Part shown: one piece after another, positions 147 through 57,197 of the stretch
How the letters are laid out: every line of letters starts with the position of its first letter
How positions within the stretch are numbered: the stretch's first letter is position 1
Sequence record: PQ478073.1
Direction: 5' to 3' (one strand)
DNA length: 64,000 nucleotides
Origin: a phage
Notes under the pieces: model-generated
Told to the model about the DNA's origin: nothing
Database searches by the model: none
Seen by the model: only the letters and a program-made list of their open reading frames with translations
Program-made: the position numbers and the translations under genes

Positions 147-542
147 ATGAAGAACAATATTGGAACTTCAATAATTAAACCACTTTCTTATTACCTTGAA
201 AAATTTAGAAGCACAAATGGTAATAAATTTAATAATATATTTCAGTTCTCTCATAAAGAATATATTACAATTGATCATTTTTCAAAGAAACTAATGTATG
301 TAAATGATAATAGTCATATTATTAAATTATCATTCGATATTGAGTTAGATAAATTAACATTTACGGAATACATTAATCAAAAAACTTCTTTTTTATGTCA
401 ATACAATAGGAAAGTATATAGTAATATTTCTATGTATCTAAATGATGAATATCACTTTCAACAATCTACAATAGAAGAAGTATTGTTCAGTACTGAAGAA
501 TTAAAAGAACTATATTACTGGTATAATTATTTCACATCTTGA
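147..542 (+). CDS. hypothetical protein, EE-x-FFQxST C-terminal motif family
   Basis: ORF 131 aa; SD GAGGA upstream; C-term NDEYHFQQSTIEE. Confidence 0.6.
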   Translation: MKNNIGTSIIKPLSYYLEKFRSTNGNKFNNIFQFSHKEYITIDHFSKKLMYVNDNSHIIKLSFDIELDKLTFTEYINQKTSFLCQYNRKVYSNISMYLNDEYHFQQSTIEEVLFSTEELKELYYWYNYFTS

Positions 543-597
543 CATTATTGTGGGTTTATCCTACAATACATGATGATGCTGCATTGAGGATAAATTT

Positions 598-1008
598 ATG
601 AGTTTAGATTTACACAATGAACTAAAATATTTTTTAGATTTGGACATATCAGAATTGAACCACCACGTCAATCATATGACTAGTACTGTATGGTGGTCTA
701 ATGATCAAGACGACCCAATTATCCAACTAAGTGATGAATCGTCAATTATGCGATTTTATAAGATTAATTATAAAACGAACATCAAGATCACATATGTACC
801 ATACAAAAACACACTACTAGTCGAAACACTTAATCCAAGTTCTTTATTAAAAATCACCGATTTAGATACATTACAAACAAGTGAATCTTTATTCCAACGT
901 TCATTAGTTGATGATCTTGGTGGTATTACTTTTGAAGATATATTACAATTGAAGAATATGTATAGTGAATTGTTGGAGATTAAAAACACTTTAGTAATGG
1001 GGAATTGA
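598..1008 (+). CDS. hypothetical protein, FFQ-motif family
   Basis: ORF 136 aa; SD GAGGA; C-term SESLFQRSLVDDLGGITFEDI. Confidence 0.6.
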   Translation: MSLDLHNELKYFLDLDISELNHHVNHMTSTVWWSNDQDDPIIQLSDESSIMRFYKINYKTNIKITYVPYKNTLLVETLNPSSLLKITDLDTLQTSESLFQRSLVDDLGGITFEDILQLKNMYSELLEIKNTLVMGN

Positions 1009-1009
1009 T

Positions 1010-1414
1010 ATGGTAAGTTTACTAGATATTGATAATACCAGTTTAGTGCTGGTGAAAAAAGGTTTAATTCCAAATTCTAAAAAAATTGATTATGCTGTTA
1101 TTGAAACAAATATTGGAAATATCTGGTACGACTCTGAAAGGGATATTGTGTTTAGCTGTGTAGACAGTGATCGTTCTGAATGTTGTAGAGTCGGTCATGA
1201 CGGACAATTTGTTTTTGAATTTCGTTATTGGAAGGACGCAAAATTTCACCAAGAACTGGTTGCTTTGTCAAATGAACTATATACAGAAGAATCGTTCTTC
1301 ATGGCTAGTACTATTAATGATTTTGGTTCAGTTACATTTGAGTACTATAAAAAAATATACGCACTATCCAGAGAAGTTATGAAAATTATCAGAACTGCTG
1401 AAGGTAAAGAATAA
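1010..1414 (+). CDS. hypothetical protein, FFQ-motif family
   Basis: ORF 134 aa; C-term TEESFFMASTINDFGSVTFE. Confidence 0.6.
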   Translation: MVSLLDIDNTSLVLVKKGLIPNSKKIDYAVIETNIGNIWYDSERDIVFSCVDSDRSECCRVGHDGQFVFEFRYWKDAKFHQELVALSNELYTEESFFMASTINDFGSVTFEYYKKIYALSREVMKIIRTAEGKE

Positions 1415-1415
1415 C

Positions 1416-1793
1416 ATGACTACTATATATGATATTTTGGGTGTTCTGAGTAGAAATATAGATGATGATTTTGTTATTGTTCAAGATACTAGAAATACAT
1501 TTCAACTACCAATAGGTTCACCAGATAGGTTAATTTTTAATAGATACTCAAATGAACTAACTTACATCCATGATGGGATTGCAATTGTATCAGTTTCTAT
1601 AAACGACTATACAATACGATATGTATATGACTTCAACGATTATTGTACAAGAATCCACAGTATTGATATTTCCGAAGAGGAACTATTCCAATTGTCATTG
1701 ATTGAGAAAAATGTAATAGGAATTACAGAAATTGGTATTATTAAAAAAGCATTAAACTATACAAATATAAGAATTAATGGTGGGTGCGGATGA
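1416..1793 (+). CDS. hypothetical protein, FFQ-motif family
   Basis: ORF 125 aa; C-term SEEELFQLSLIEKN. Confidence 0.6.
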   Translation: MTTIYDILGVLSRNIDDDFVIVQDTRNTFQLPIGSPDRLIFNRYSNELTYIHDGIAIVSVSINDYTIRYVYDFNDYCTRIHSIDISEEELFQLSLIEKNVIGITEIGIIKKALNYTNIRINGGCG

Positions 1794-2245
1794 ATGTTGA
1801 CGAAATAAAAAATCATTTTGAAATTGCAATGTCATGTGAATTTGACACACAACGTGTTCATGACCCGAAAGAACATATACGAATTTGTTGTGAATTGTCA
1901 GATGATTGTAATATTTTTATTGGAAAAACCTATGACATGATCGATCTTTCATGTATAGATCCATTGGAAAGAAAAACAAAATATTTATATCTGTACAACA
2001 CAACATCAGATACGATTGCAATACAACTAATATCAACCACAACATCCCAAAGTTATTATAACATAACTGAGGTTAGTAGTTTAACGTTAACCGAAGAAGG
2101 ATTCTTTCAACAATCGCTTATTCGTGAAATTGGTGTTAGTTATGATGAGTTAAATGTATTAATAGATTGTTTCGAAAAATTGAGTACTTTTGTATTATCC
2201 CTTTTTAATATACAGTCGCAAAATCCAATGGTGGTGAAATGCTAA
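1790..2245 (+). CDS. hypothetical protein, FFQ-motif family
   Basis: start moved to ATG overlapping upstream stop (ATGA); C-term TEEGFFQQSLIREIG. Confidence 0.55.
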   Translation: MNVDEIKNHFEIAMSCEFDTQRVHDPKEHIRICCELSDDCNIFIGKTYDMIDLSCIDPLERKTKYLYLYNTTSDTIAIQLISTTTSQSYYNITEVSSLTLTEEGFFQQSLIREIGVSYDELNVLIDCFEKLSTFVLSLFNIQSQNPMVVKC

Positions 2246-55074: not shown

Positions 55075-55388
55075 TGGATATAGTAACATTGATTTACACG
55101 TTGTATTCATTCTATTTCATTATGTGTTGGGTTGGATTTTTATTTGTACTCAAGATGTTTGATTATGTTGAAAAACAGATAAAAGAATTTTGTATTCCTT
55201 TTATCGGTTCAACCATTATTAGTGTTTCTTGTGTGTATTTTTTGGTTTTTGATCCACCAGATAACACTGCAATGATTGACTTGATGTTACTACCAACAAC
55301 TGTTACTTTTTTATGTAGTCTGATGCCGCCGATTAGCCGTGGACTAACAGAATTTAGACGCAATCAAAAGCGTAAACGAGGGATGTAA
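55074..55388 (+). CDS. small membrane protein, tandem family B (5 of 8)
   Basis: C-term basic RRNQKRKRGM. Confidence 0.5.
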   Translation: MDIVTLIYTLYSFYFIMCWVGFLFVLKMFDYVEKQIKEFCIPFIGSTIISVSCVYFLVFDPPDNTAMIDLMLLPTTVTFLCSLMPPISRGLTEFRRNQKRKRGM

Positions 55389-55756
55389 TGGAAATTGCTC
55401 TTATTATCTTAACTGCTATGCTGTTTATTAGTACTGTGGTTATAATTGGTAAATTCTTTTGTGTATCATTTTTAGAAACGGTATACGATGAAATTGCTGA
55501 TGATTATGAACTACAAGCCGGATTTTTCATTACGTATTGGCTTAGTTTATTTTGTCTAGTCATTGCTTGGATTTTACATATCTTTAAATGGGGTATGGTA
55601 GACGGTGATCCTATTATGGCAATTATTGTTCTAGTGTTTGGTATCCTTGGTGGTGCAGTGCATAATCTAATGGTTATCTGGCAAACTGTTCAATATGTTT
55701 TGGTTCCCTATTTCGAAAAGATGCACAGTACAATTAAAAAACGTAAACGAGGTTAG
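55388..55756 (+). CDS. small membrane protein, tandem family B (6 of 8)
   Basis: C-term basic TIKKRKRG. Confidence 0.5.
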   Translation: MEIALIILTAMLFISTVVIIGKFFCVSFLETVYDEIADDYELQAGFFITYWLSLFCLVIAWILHIFKWGMVDGDPIMAIIVLVFGILGGAVHNLMVIWQTVQYVLVPYFEKMHSTIKKRKRG

Positions 55757-55757
55757 T

Positions 55758-56120
55758 ATGAACGGGATAGAATTATCTTTCGTTGGTCAATTACTAGTAA
55801 TGGCGTATACATTTATCTTCTCACTGAATGCATTCGTGTGCATTGGGAAGTACTTCCATAAGCGACCATTATCAAATATATATGATGTAATCCAAAAGAG
55901 ATATAGTCCAGCATATACTGTGTTGGGTACAGTATTCAATTTTGGTTTTATTGTATTAATAATTGGACTGTTCACATCCTCTTTGAATACAATAACCTTC
56001 GGTCTTATGATATGTTCATTGGTATTAGCCGTAATTATATGTTGTTTAGTACTGCACCTTGTGGTACTATTGTATATAAAGATCTCTGAAATCCACCAAC
56101 GTTTGGGTATGAGGAAATAA
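55758..56120 (+). CDS. small membrane protein, tandem family B (7 of 8)
   Basis: start moved to ATG 55758 (SD GAGG) after upstream stop. Confidence 0.45.
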   Translation: MNGIELSFVGQLLVMAYTFIFSLNAFVCIGKYFHKRPLSNIYDVIQKRYSPAYTVLGTVFNFGFIVLIIGLFTSSLNTITFGLMICSLVLAVIICCLVLHLVVLLYIKISEIHQRLGMRK

Positions 56121-56121
56121 T

Positions 56122-56493
56122 ATGAGTTACCGTGAGATATTTTCCATTATTTCAATTATTATGTTCAGTACTGGAACACTGGTATGGTTATTATACTTCT
56201 TCTGTATTAATCCAGTGTATAATATGTTATGTAATATTAAATCAAGTGCCGGATATATCACTTTTATGGTCTTTATGGGATATTATTGTCTAAGCATTTT
56301 AGGTGTTGTTTTGGTTGTTATATTTGATGTGGGACCAAATAGTGATGGTATGGAAATACATGAATTAATAACCATGTTTGGATGTATGATACCAACAGCA
56401 CTACTGTTTGTAGCTACTGGTAGTGGATTGATAAAATTATATAATTATTTAAAATCCATTCATAATTCCATTCATAATAAGCGTATGTCATAA
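56122..56493 (+). CDS. small membrane protein, tandem family B (8 of 8)
   Basis: ORF 123 aa; TM helices. Confidence 0.5.
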   Translation: MSYREIFSIISIIMFSTGTLVWLLYFFCINPVYNMLCNIKSSAGYITFMVFMGYYCLSILGVVLVVIFDVGPNSDGMEIHELITMFGCMIPTALLFVATGSGLIKLYNYLKSIHNSIHNKRMS

Positions 56494-56534
56494 TAAAAAT
56501 CCAGTACTATCAAGTACTGGATTAATAAGGAGTT

Positions 56535-57197
56535 ATGATGAAAACAAAATTAGGTTTGTTTTATAAAAATTATTTCGTTAAACAGCGTAAATTTATAAAA
56601 AAATATTTCTTTGGTGAGAAGTCTAGTCCTATAATTTTTAAAAGACCAAGTTATAATACTTACTTAGCTGGTGCTAAACAGTCTAAGAAATTTATTACTC
56701 TTTTAAATAAAAACAAAATTAAAGCTTCTTATGTTGAAACGAGAAGAAACTCATCAATAACTCCTGGTGATTTTATTGAGTACGGATGTTTCAATATTAA
56801 GTATAATGATAATACATACTTTATGGATATTGATTGTAATACATCCAATCTTTTTAACATTGTAGTAAATCCATTAAAACAATATAATGTTTATGGTGAT
56901 TCTATTATCAAATTAATCAAAAACAAAGATGGCTTTGATTTTGAAATAAATGTTTTAGATGATAATTTTGACGAAGTACCCGTAAACCCTGAAATCTGTG
57001 ATATTTTAAACAGTTTAAAAGGTAGTACCTACAATATATCATCTGATTTAATGTTTCAGTACTCATTAATCCATAAAGATATTGAAAAGTATATTGAATG
57101 TTCCAAAATTTTGAATTATCTTTACGATGAATTTAAAAAGAGTTCTAAAATAACCGCATACACTTTGTACAATATTCCTAAAATGGTGAATCTTTGA
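56535..57197 (+). CDS. hypothetical protein with divergent FFQ-like motif (SDLMFQYSLIHKDIEKY)
   Basis: ORF 220 aa; SD AAGGAG; convergent with RCC1-like array. Confidence 0.55.
   Translation: MMKTKLGLFYKNYFVKQRKFIKKYFFGEKSSPIIFKRPSYNTYLAGAKQSKKFITLLNKNKIKASYVETRRNSSITPGDFIEYGCFNIKYNDNTYFMDIDCNTSNLFNIVVNPLKQYNVYGDSIIKLIKNKDGFDFEINVLDDNFDEVPVNPEICDILNSLKGSTYNISSDLMFQYSLIHKDIEKYIECSKILNYLYDEFKKSSKITAYTLYNIPKMVNL

Follow-up and report, generated by a model that had tools for sequence, protein, structure and literature searches.

Twenty-two small proteins encoded by a segment of an Asteriusvirus jumbo phage form one family with a predicted common fold

A stretch of phage DNA from sequence record PQ478073.1 (64,000 nucleotides [nt], hereafter the window, meaning the whole stretch at its full length) raises the question of what is encoded by a long series of small genes whose products share a short motif near the C-terminus. 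An earlier note on the window had listed 22 such genes between positions 147 and 57,197 and had considered that they might constitute a diversifying arsenal for host takeover or against host defenses, or that the motif might be a shared tag for a common partner. We find that the 22 genes encode a single protein family. Its members are predicted to adopt one compact domain in which the motif is an internal helix, and the family is greatly expanded in one group of jumbo phages.

Each of the 22 listed genes starts with ATG and is an open reading frame (ORF) of the + strand that encodes a protein of 117 to 220 amino acids (aa). A MAFFT alignment of these proteins places the motif, [ST]-E-E-x-Φ-F-Q-x-S-[TL]-[VI] (where Φ is a hydrophobic residue), in a single block, and its position is therefore conserved. 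The glutamate at motif position 3 and the phenylalanine at position 6 are each conserved in at least 90% of the members. To avoid circularity, we built 22 leave-one-out (LOO) hidden Markov models (HMMs) and searched each among the 334 ORFs of the window. Eighteen of the 22 members were found at E ≤ 4e-4, and the other four (starting at 10891, 12037, 40895, and 56535) gave marginal values between 0.02 and 0.06. An HMM constructed from 139 relatives in other genomes recovered all 22 proteins at E ≤ 7e-5, with the next window ORF at 0.12. Likewise, a combined HMM, which includes the window sequences themselves, recovered them at E ≤ 3e-5, with the next ORF at 0.2. Because of this gap between the 22 proteins and all other ORFs, the window has exactly 22 detectable members. 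The count of at least 22 given previously is thus right for the window, but the genome as a whole carries about 50 to 70 copies, as judged from the scan of a close relative described below.

Several additional candidates were examined and rejected. The ORFs at 34131, 39682, and 9119 scored at E-values of 0.03 to 0.5, and the motif is absent from them. The 113-aa ORF at 22970-23311 (+) has a C-terminal DFGLKFDDLVQ segment that is similar to the region following the motif (the turn and helix αC described below), but it is without EE..FQ (dots represent any residue) and scored at E = 19. This ORF may be a degenerate relic or may represent a chance likeness.

The EE..FQ signature appears 10 times in translations of the + strand of the window and not at all in those of the - strand. 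In a related complete genome there are 37 occurrences, compared to 0.8 expected from shuffled residues. The conserved Ser residue is encoded nine times by AGY and seven times by TCN codons, the conserved Phe by both TTT and TTC, and the conserved Gln by both CAA and CAG. This codon diversity rules out a DNA-level repeat as the source of the conservation, and the mixture of AGY and TCN codons indicates that selection has acted on the motif as protein sequence rather than as DNA sequence. We also observed that the window includes a gene for tRNA-Ser (16897-16988) with the unusual anticodon ACT, and that AGT is the commonest codon at the motif Ser (8 of 16). The motif starts 33 to 55 residues from the C-terminus in 20 members, and 70 and 85 residues from it in the members starting at 11552 and 4722, respectively. 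The previously stated distance of 25 to 45 residues therefore has to be widened. Similarly, a G-[LI]-T-[FL]-E-[DE]-[IL] stretch that was thought usually to follow the motif is clear in only about one-third of the 22 proteins, and the wider consensus for this region is D-Φ-G-x-Φ-[TS]-Φ-E-[DE]-Φ.

The HMM alignments extend over almost the complete proteins (for example, profile positions 5 to 118 of 131). Therefore, the N-terminal parts are divergent, as was noticed earlier, yet they are homologous. A conserved C-terminal module carried on unrelated N-termini does not describe these proteins, because the whole of the ~130 aa is one homologous domain. Structure prediction with AlphaFold2 was poor when only the 22 paralogs were supplied (predicted local distance difference test score [pLDDT] of 64.7). 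When an alignment of 150 sequences was used for the protein encoded at 598-1008, the model reached a pLDDT of 89.7 and a predicted template modeling score (pTM) of 0.82. This model contains a helix at residues 5-13, seven β-strands within residues 21-87, a helix at 95-102, and a helix at 112-134. As modeled, the family protein is one soluble domain of about 130 aa that is composed of αA, a seven-stranded antiparallel β-meander, αB, a Gly turn, and αC. The motif in this model is the short helix αB inside the fold (N-cap T/S94, then E-E-x-Φ-F-Q-x-S-[T/L]-[V/I]-x-D), and its residues 95-102 are predicted as helical with a block pLDDT of 93-94. The motif is accordingly a predicted core helix of a folded domain, and the idea of a shared tag is not supported.

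Residue conservation was counted in the 150-sequence alignment with the numbering of the 598-1008 protein. E95 is present in 134 sequences, E96 in 141, F99 in 148, Q100 in 126 (Met otherwise), and S102 in 134. Position 103 is Thr or Leu in 145 sequences, position 104 is Val, Ile, or Leu in 146, and D106 is kept in 97. Position 101 is variable, as is position 97 in part. Judging by helical periodicity, the conserved αB residues would face the rest of the domain, with positions 97 and 101 opposite F99. D106 is followed by a Gly-rich turn and then by the long helix αC, which opens with [TS]111-Φ-E113-[DE]-Φ. Other conserved positions are L5 and L9 in αA and hydrophobic residues with i, i+2, i+4 spacing in the strands (I50, Y54, I64, Y66, and 73/75/77), and the rest is variable. 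This alternation in the strands is what would be expected of a sheet that has helices packed against one face and leaves the other face exposed. No basic, Cys, or His position is conserved anywhere in the domain among the 150 sequences.

The authors of the earlier note did not recognize the family, and neither do the databases. No Pfam family was matched when 10 members and then 150 members were searched individually, and the only hits were scattered sub-threshold singles (MutS_IV, SUKH_6, and CdiI_4). A profile search of all PDB sequences returned a single chance match (E = 0.75). Thus, HMM searches of Pfam and of PDB sequences place the family in no well-characterized group. The 22 members match 21 different PHROGs, none with a described function, and every database name for the family proteins is “hypothetical.” For example, the listed members in the first 20 kb are coding sequences (CDSs) of phage 121Q called “hypothetical protein” (including gp83-88, 93, 94, and 96). 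The family is absent from the BLASTP paralog table in the report on phage CBB, which includes pairs to quadruplets only (PMC5259590), and it is unmentioned in the jumbo-phage survey by Iyer et al. (PMC7824862) and in the papers on CBB, phAPEC6, Sharanji, and UE-S1. Among the members in the window, 9 of 231 paralog pairs are detected by BLASTP at E < 1e-3, and only the 18843/19261 pair (32% identity) aligns over its full length. BLAST-level studies and PHROGs have missed the family because its paralogs are alike essentially in the ten-residue helix only.

To which phages does the family belong? A megablast search with the first 20 kb of the window matched 54 phage records, and the best of these cover 86-97% of the query at 95-98.7% identity. 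These best matches are Escherichia coli and Salmonella jumbo phages of ~320-370 kb from the genus Asteriusvirus (121Q, PBECO4, phAPEC6, SP27, Sharanji, and JP4). The window is therefore from an Asteriusvirus jumbo phage and not from a T4-like phage in the strict sense. The earlier wording, T4-like, is loose, since phages of this type are only distantly related to T4 (PMC7824862; PMC5259590). The DNA is AT-rich (32-36% GC), and its GC skew is positive and then turns negative from ~56 kb, where the coding strand switches.

We scanned two genomes using mechanically defined ORFs, and the E-values from these scans are relative to ~1,800 ORFs. In phage ECO103 4-12-1 (OR844650.1; 351,992 bp, unannotated, 97% identical to the window), 1,811 ORFs yielded 50 family members at E ≤ 1e-3, 60 at E ≤ 0.01, and 72 at E ≤ 0.1. 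Nearly all of these matches, including the marginal ones, carry the motif on inspection (for example, SEEQHFQLSTL, TEEEFFQYSTV, and SEEYYFQNSTV). The members beyond those corresponding to the window include one gene that lies immediately 5' of the window start, a small cluster at 198-213 kb (198800-213100), and an array of ~45 consecutive family genes at 265-295 kb, hereafter called the mega-array. The mega-array proteins have 103 to 207 aa, and the tail after the motif is often longer. In OU509535.1, a RaK2-type Klebsiella phage of another genus, we found 39 members at E ≤ 1e-3 and 46 at E ≤ 0.1, which are located in two arrays (51-81 kb and 318-339 kb).

Two broader searches were also run. 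A HMMER scan of 1.84 billion protein cluster representatives (50% identity) gave 153 clusters at E ≤ 1e-3. Almost all of these are proteins of 107 to 216 aa that align end to end and have a strikingly uniform consensus, TEEEYFQQST[VI]xD; three matches are long multi-stretch proteins, which are unrelated and probably spurious. The family representatives that were looked up are located on contigs of up to ~350-362 kb. When the motif region was reduced to a 38-aa consensus and compared by tblastn with 50,697 phage records, 62 of them matched. One of these is a partial record, and the others are 320-381 kb in length. These phages infect Escherichia, Klebsiella, Salmonella, Erwinia, Yersinia, Pectobacterium, and Cronobacter, and one is a Xanthomonas phage. 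The family is confined to jumbo phages of the RaK2/121Q type, where it is present in ~40-70 copies per genome, or roughly one gene in ten.

The sequences also provide information on the age of this expansion. When the window was compared to ECO103 4-12-1, the pooled Nei-Gojobori ratio of nonsynonymous to synonymous substitution rates (dN/dS) was 0.21 across 18 family genes, nearly the same as the 0.20 obtained for 64 neighboring genes, and thus the elevated ratio that we sought for the family was not found between these two phages. The family genes are maintained under ordinary purifying selection with no unusual diversifying pressure. Between the two strains, a few loci are missing or have been replaced: identity falls to 82% for the members at 5234 and 6069, and there is no counterpart of the ORF at 15433. 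Along their full length, many members resemble proteins from other 50%-identity clusters much more closely than they resemble any paralog (35-68% identity; examples are given in the table). Because orthologs are closer than paralogs, the family must have expanded before these phage genera diverged, with individual copies kept since then. Recent tandem duplication was rejected as the source of the copies, since only some nearest relatives are neighbors and most best matches are weak and distant in the array. Therefore, a diversifying family in the sense first proposed is not supported. The background-level dN/dS and the orthologs in other genera show that the expansion is old and that each copy is conserved.

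The genomic context offers additional clues. The 22 members reside among other small genes, and the neighbors in this block include seven tRNA genes, a C5-methyltransferase, a σ70-like factor, an AAA ATPase, and a pyrimidine-dimer glycosylase. Within positions 1-53000 of the window, σ70 promoters with no more than one mismatch to the 12 consensus positions occur 32 times on the + strand and once on the - strand, compared to ~3.2 expected per strand under a first-order Markov model. Eleven of the 32 + strand sites are perfect (TTGACA-N16-18-TATAAT). The homologous region of CBB (CBB_390-546) also concentrates RpoD-like promoters, and its authors proposed that early host-takeover genes are located there (PMC5259590). 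On the basis of these promoter sequences, the block is probably transcribed early by the host RNA polymerase. A phage σ70-family factor with regions 2, 3, and 4 is encoded in the middle of this presumed early block (30107-31072, +), and its counterpart in CBB has been suggested to redirect host transcription. The members have a median isoelectric point (pI) of 4.7 compared to 7.0 for the other window ORFs of at least 100 aa, and no run of 12 or more hydrophobic residues was found in the members in the window.

We tentatively favor, at somewhat less than an even chance, the explanation that these are early cytoplasmic binder or inhibitor proteins built on a conserved scaffold and encoded by one ancient family of functional genes. 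The host RNA polymerase would make these proteins right after infection, and they would act in the cytoplasm. Three helices would pack on one face of the sheet, with F99, T/L103, V/I104, and the strand hydrophobics forming the core of the common scaffold. The other face of the sheet and the loops, which are nearly all different between paralogs and conserved between orthologs, would let each copy bind a target of its own. Most copies are acidic, and for this reason the best candidate targets would be host proteins that are basic or bind nucleic acids (for example, nucleoid proteins, nucleases, defense components, or transcription factors). The copies might then act as inhibitors or decoys in the manner of p32-type acidic proteins and phage DNA mimics. 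Residues E95, E96, Q100, S102, D106, and E113 probably form a shared functional site, which could be an interface between subunits, as in the doughnut-shaped homotrimer of p32, or the place where one common partner is contacted. The polar residues are conserved above the needs of a helix cap and lack a conserved basic counterpart, which suggests an additional shared function for the hairpin formed by αB and αC. The host-takeover or anti-defense role considered earlier fits this context, given the strand bias of the σ70 promoters, the proposal for the early region of CBB, and the acidic, soluble, and non-virion (see below) character of the proteins.

Known phage proteins and gene families provide partial parallels. 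Ocr, Arn, and ArdA are acidic decoy or inhibitor proteins that mimic DNA. They might be functional analogs of the family proteins in being small, acidic, early, cytoplasmic, and non-virion, but they are encoded by single genes and not by families of dozens, and we do not claim any relation in sequence or fold. Bacillus phage G carries a zinc-ribbon family of ~35 copies that is also a lineage-specific jumbo-phage expansion (Iyer et al. 2021, PMC7824862). The pattern is the same, with dozens of small one-domain paralogs of unknown or regulatory function in one lineage. However, the family described herein has another fold, has no metal-binding Cys or His residues, and reaches more copies (up to ~70, or ~10% of genes).

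Several considerations weigh against the binder or inhibitor interpretation. First, this role is deduced from the genomic context and the predicted fold. Second, the assignment to the early class derives from promoter consensus matches and from the published proposal for a related phage. Third, the background-level dN/dS speaks against the current arms race that would be expected of a pure anti-defense arsenal. Fourth, three of the 22 members are basic proteins with a pI above 9, and two of these have N-terminal extensions. Finally, a single member was modeled at high confidence, and the burial of the motif is deduced from helical periodicity.

An alternative that we consider unlikely is that the proteins are adaptors similar to those with an F-box or SOCS-box. 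The invariant αB-turn-αC hairpin would dock one shared partner, and the variable sheet would recruit clients. Residues E95, E96, Q100, S102, D106, and E113 are kept in 60-94% of the 150 sequences, which is far above the rest, and there is no conserved basic residue elsewhere in the domain with which these polar residues could pair. Candidate partners include RNA polymerase, the phage σ factor, whose σ70-like gene is in the same block, or a protease. The ClpP-like protein annotated in CBB would be an example of the latter, and the CBB gene list includes an ATP-dependent Clp protease subunit. However, the motif also holds the core hydrophobics (F99 in 148 of 150, T/L103, and V/I104) in a packed helix with a pLDDT of ~93, and consequently its conservation can be explained by folding alone. 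A more ambitious version, which we regard as rather improbable, is that the T-E-E-x-Φ-F-Q-x-S...D...E hairpin is a universal docking or assembly interface, and that the 40-70 paralogs constitute a combinatorial targeting system. They would either assemble as exchangeable subunits into mixed p32-like rings or serve as F-box-like adaptors that bring many different host proteins to a single machine of the phage or the host.

The predicted fold brings to mind another group of acidic proteins. p32 has seven consecutive antiparallel strands that are flanked by one N-terminal and two C-terminal helices. The family model shares the element order of p32/gC1qBP/Mam33 (PF02330), αA-β1..β7-αB-αC, in which an antiparallel sheet carries the helices on a single face. 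Both groups are acidic, since p32/Mam33 proteins are very acidic and 16 of the 22 members have a pI below 5, with the three basic members as exceptions. When the model was searched against PDB with Foldseek, p32 entries were on top, but with E-values of 0.13-1.2 nothing was significant, and a Foldseek search of BFVD matched only uncharacterized proteins of the same phage group. At the sequence level, none of 150 members matched PF02330 (MAM33) at E ≤ 0.1. An hhalign comparison of the 150-sequence family profile with 111 vertebrate p32 sequences gave a probability of 0.2%, although this p32 profile is shallow and not exhaustive. A literature search for phage proteins with the MAM33 fold returned nothing relevant. 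Furthermore, p32/Mam33 proteins have ~200 aa rather than ~130, the T-E-E-x-Φ-F-Q-x-S motif is not a feature of them, and MAM33 genes are single-copy and eukaryotic or mitochondrial, in contrast to the 40-70 copies per genome of the phage family. We therefore use “p32/Mam33-like in topology” as a lead and not as a classification.

This resemblance does suggest that the family proteins could be acidic chaperones that form oligomers like p32/Mam33 and serve the basic proteins or the nucleic acids of the phage itself, in which the helices would form the ring interface of homotrimers or mixed trimers. We consider this doubtful, given that there is no sequence-level link to MAM33 and no significant Foldseek match, and that dozens of distinct chaperones per genome are hard to rationalize. 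Less credible still is the idea that the proteins are small enzymes with E-E...Q-x-S as an active or metal-binding site. The invariant acidic and polar cluster at the N-terminus of a helix would be compatible with this role, but neither Pfam nor PDB sequences gave a match, no His, Lys, Arg, or Cys is conserved elsewhere, and dozens of isoenzymes with hypervariable remainders would be unusual.

The internal proteins of the T4 head carry a common short conserved targeting sequence, an N-terminal peptide that the prohead protease removes, and the motif might by analogy be a packaging or capsid-targeting signal for internal head proteins that are injected. The capsid of phAPEC6 has an inner body (PMC7247149), and the published virion proteomes of related phages allow this possibility to be evaluated by mapping the family members by mass and position. 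The virion proteome of phAPEC6, which is 98% identical to the window, includes 62 proteins, and none of these is a family member by such mapping (PMC7247149). Four of them map to the family-bearing part of the window (gp035c, gp037c, gp077, and gp078c). By exact mass, gp037c (14.83 kDa, 48% coverage) is the product of 42040-42423 (+) and gp077 (42.88 kDa) is that of 24156-25310 (-). Both are non-members, although their ORFs are located inside the presumed early block. There is no member of matching mass at the matching position of the mapped phAPEC6 virion proteins, and gp306c also maps to a non-member ORF. The mega-array maps between phAPEC6 gp347 and gp549, and no virion protein was detected in this range (gp348-548). 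Likewise, no CBB virion protein is a member in the 322-350 kb part of the early region, which is the part that was checked. In addition, the conserved block begins at residues 83-169 and is not N-terminal, the N-termini are variable except for L5/L9, and the genes lie among σ70 (early) promoters and not late ones. A packaging signal, which the earlier note had listed as an option, is thus highly improbable.

Equally improbable is its suggestion of a processing site of the E-x-x-Y-x-Q/S type, at which a Gln-specific protease like those of tobacco etch virus (TEV) or the 3C group (E-x-x-Y-x-Q↓S) would mature or inactivate the proteins: although the motif has Glu at P6 (134 of 150) and Gln at P1 (126 of 150), as potyviral NIa (TEV) sites commonly have Glu at -5 and Gln at 0, and several members have EEEYFQ, Tyr is at P3 in only 49 of 150 (Phe, Leu, and His are common), Gln is replaced by Met in 24 of 150, P1' is variable (Gln in 40, Leu in 26, Tyr in 18, and Glu in 18) rather than Ser or Gly, the conserved Ser is one position later at P2' (134 of 150), the segment is modeled as a helix in a confidently folded domain from which a cut would remove αC and destroy the fold, and no such protease was identified, the whole proteome not having been scanned for peptidase families.

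Other features of the window were recorded during this analysis. The seven tRNA genes are located within 13075-18826 (+), with family members in between. An ORF among them (16311-16835, +, 174 aa) apparently corresponds to a protein annotated as “HNH endonuclease” in JP4 and UE-S1. In 121Q, there is no CDS of matching size at this place, and the ORF is therefore probably a strain-specific homing-endonuclease insertion. Two paralogous ORFs (12853-13047 and 13372-13572, +; 64 and 66 aa), which both start with M(N/Y)WIHKMTHEEW, flank the tRNA-Gly stretch and suggest a local duplication. The pyrimidine-dimer DNA glycosylase (49872-50387, +) is of the T4 endonuclease V type (Pfam Pyr_excise, E = 6e-15) and has an acidic C-terminal extension.

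Small predicted membrane proteins of ~104-141 aa are encoded in tandem arrays at 53713-56493 (+, 8 copies) and 46364-47399 (+, 3 copies). Many of these have basic R-x-[NK]-Φ-P-[ED] tails (for example, LRDNLPER and LRNKIPEE), and they represent another lineage-specific paralog family. Paralogs of 119 and 116 aa with signal-peptide-like N-termini (37897-38256 and 38648-38998, +) alternate with multi-pass membrane ORFs (37192-37818 and 38268-38645). The 127-aa virion protein encoded at 42040-42423 and the adjoining 517-aa ORF (42670-44223) have a LDSLGLL-like segment in common. Finally, at least six paralogous genes for RCC1-like β-propellers (Pfam RCC1-like domain, E = 1e-15) are present at 57178-63888 (-), where the GC skew flips. 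Their homologs are virion proteins annotated for “DNA condensation” in phAPEC6 (gp003-010, 549, and 551) and GAP32. Several copies of such genes are carried by 121Q and by PBECO4, and their products may have to do with the hair-like fibers.

Table. Family members and nearby promoters in the window, with motif positions and HMM E-values
Feature	Coordinates	Strand	Motif (nt)	LOO E	Combined E	Remarks
Member, 131 aa	147..542	+	NDEYHFQQST (441-470)	9.9e-8	2e-13	121Q gp83
σ70-like promoter	539-567	+				Just upstream of member 598
Member, 136 aa	598..1008	+	TSESLFQRSL (877-906)	2.4e-7	1.7e-15	AlphaFold2-modeled; full-length relative P0041, 42% (E 2e-39)
Member, 134 aa	1010..1414	+	TEESFFMAST (1283-1312)	1e-8	1.5e-15	Q replaced by M
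Member, 125 aa	1416..1793	+	SEEELFQLSL (1671-1700)	6.7e-5	2.7e-10	
Member, 151 aa	1790..2245	+	TEEGFFQQSL (2090-2119)	5.6e-8	3.8e-14	Start as 121Q gp87
Member, 146 aa	2239..2679	+	TEESLFQLST (2545-2574)	1.8e-6	2.8e-15	
Member, 171 aa	4722..5237	+	SEEEFFQRST (4980-5009)	2.7e-7	9.4e-16	Long helical C-terminal extension
Member, 151 aa	5234..5689	+	NDEYVFQQST (5567-5596)	1e-5	5.7e-16	Ortholog P0132, 40%
Member, 147 aa	6069..6512	+	LEEMYFQQLT (6402-6431)	4.7e-7	4.9e-13	
Divergent member, 130 aa	10891..11283	+	SEEDEFQKNT (11167-11196)	0.033	1.4e-7	Outside-relatives E 4.3e-6
Member, 162 aa	11552..12040	+	TEEERFMLST (11828-11857)	1.5e-8	2e-13	Basic C-terminal extension
Divergent member, 134 aa	12037..12441	+	SVEEEFQYNL (12328-12357)	0.056	6.5e-8	Outside-relatives E 3.2e-7
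σ70-like promoter	14714-14741	+				Directly upstream of member 14773
Member, 117 aa	14773..15126	+	TEEEYFQMST (15019-15048)	1.8e-7	2.8e-14	
Divergent member, 129 aa	15586..15975	+	DEADEFQKRT (15856-15885)	1.1e-4	8.3e-9	
Member, 141 aa	18843..19268	+	TEEKFFQYCL (19140-19169)	6.4e-6	3.7e-16	
Member, 121 aa	19261..19626	+	TEESLFQYSM (19516-19545)	8.5e-12	1.3e-13	
Member, 139 aa	20346..20765	+	TEEMYLQLNF (20640-20669)	6.1e-5	4.7e-14	
Member, 138 aa	20767..21183	+	DSEMFFQLST (21064-21093)	2e-11	1.6e-12	
Member, 136 aa	21176..21586	+	TEEEHFMEST (21464-21493)	1.7e-6	7.3e-15	Orthologs P0094, 68%, and P0156, 42%
Isolated member, 172 aa	35340..35858	+	TEENVFQQSL (35691-35720)	4e-4	1.4e-9	Ortholog P0066, 41%
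Isolated basic member, 190 aa	40895..41467	+	NDEEYFQESI (41330-41359)	0.049	6.6e-9	N-terminal extension; outside-relatives E 7.2e-5
Most divergent member, basic, 220 aa	56535..57197	+	SSDLMFQYSL (57039-57068)	0.02	3e-5	N-terminal extension; outside-relatives E 5.3e-5; ortholog P0170, 46%, with EEQLFQYSL at same place

More than 80% of the genes in these 350-kb phages have no known function (PMC7247149). Recognition of the family unites ~20 orphan PHROGs, together with further ones from the rest of the genome, in a single unit that can be tested. It also supplies a confident fold model, a target for mutagenesis (E95, E96, Q100, and S102), and the expectation that the members are binders of an early, cytoplasmic, and non-structural kind. 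If each copy neutralizes a different host factor, then the family would be a rich source of inhibitors of bacterial defense and housekeeping proteins, and the copies may help to explain the growth of these therapeutically used phages on many hosts. If instead one partner is common to all copies, then the family would represent a new modular mechanism of takeover. Combinatorial targeting, if true, would mean that jumbo phages take over their hosts by a new principle and devote ~10% of the genome to it.

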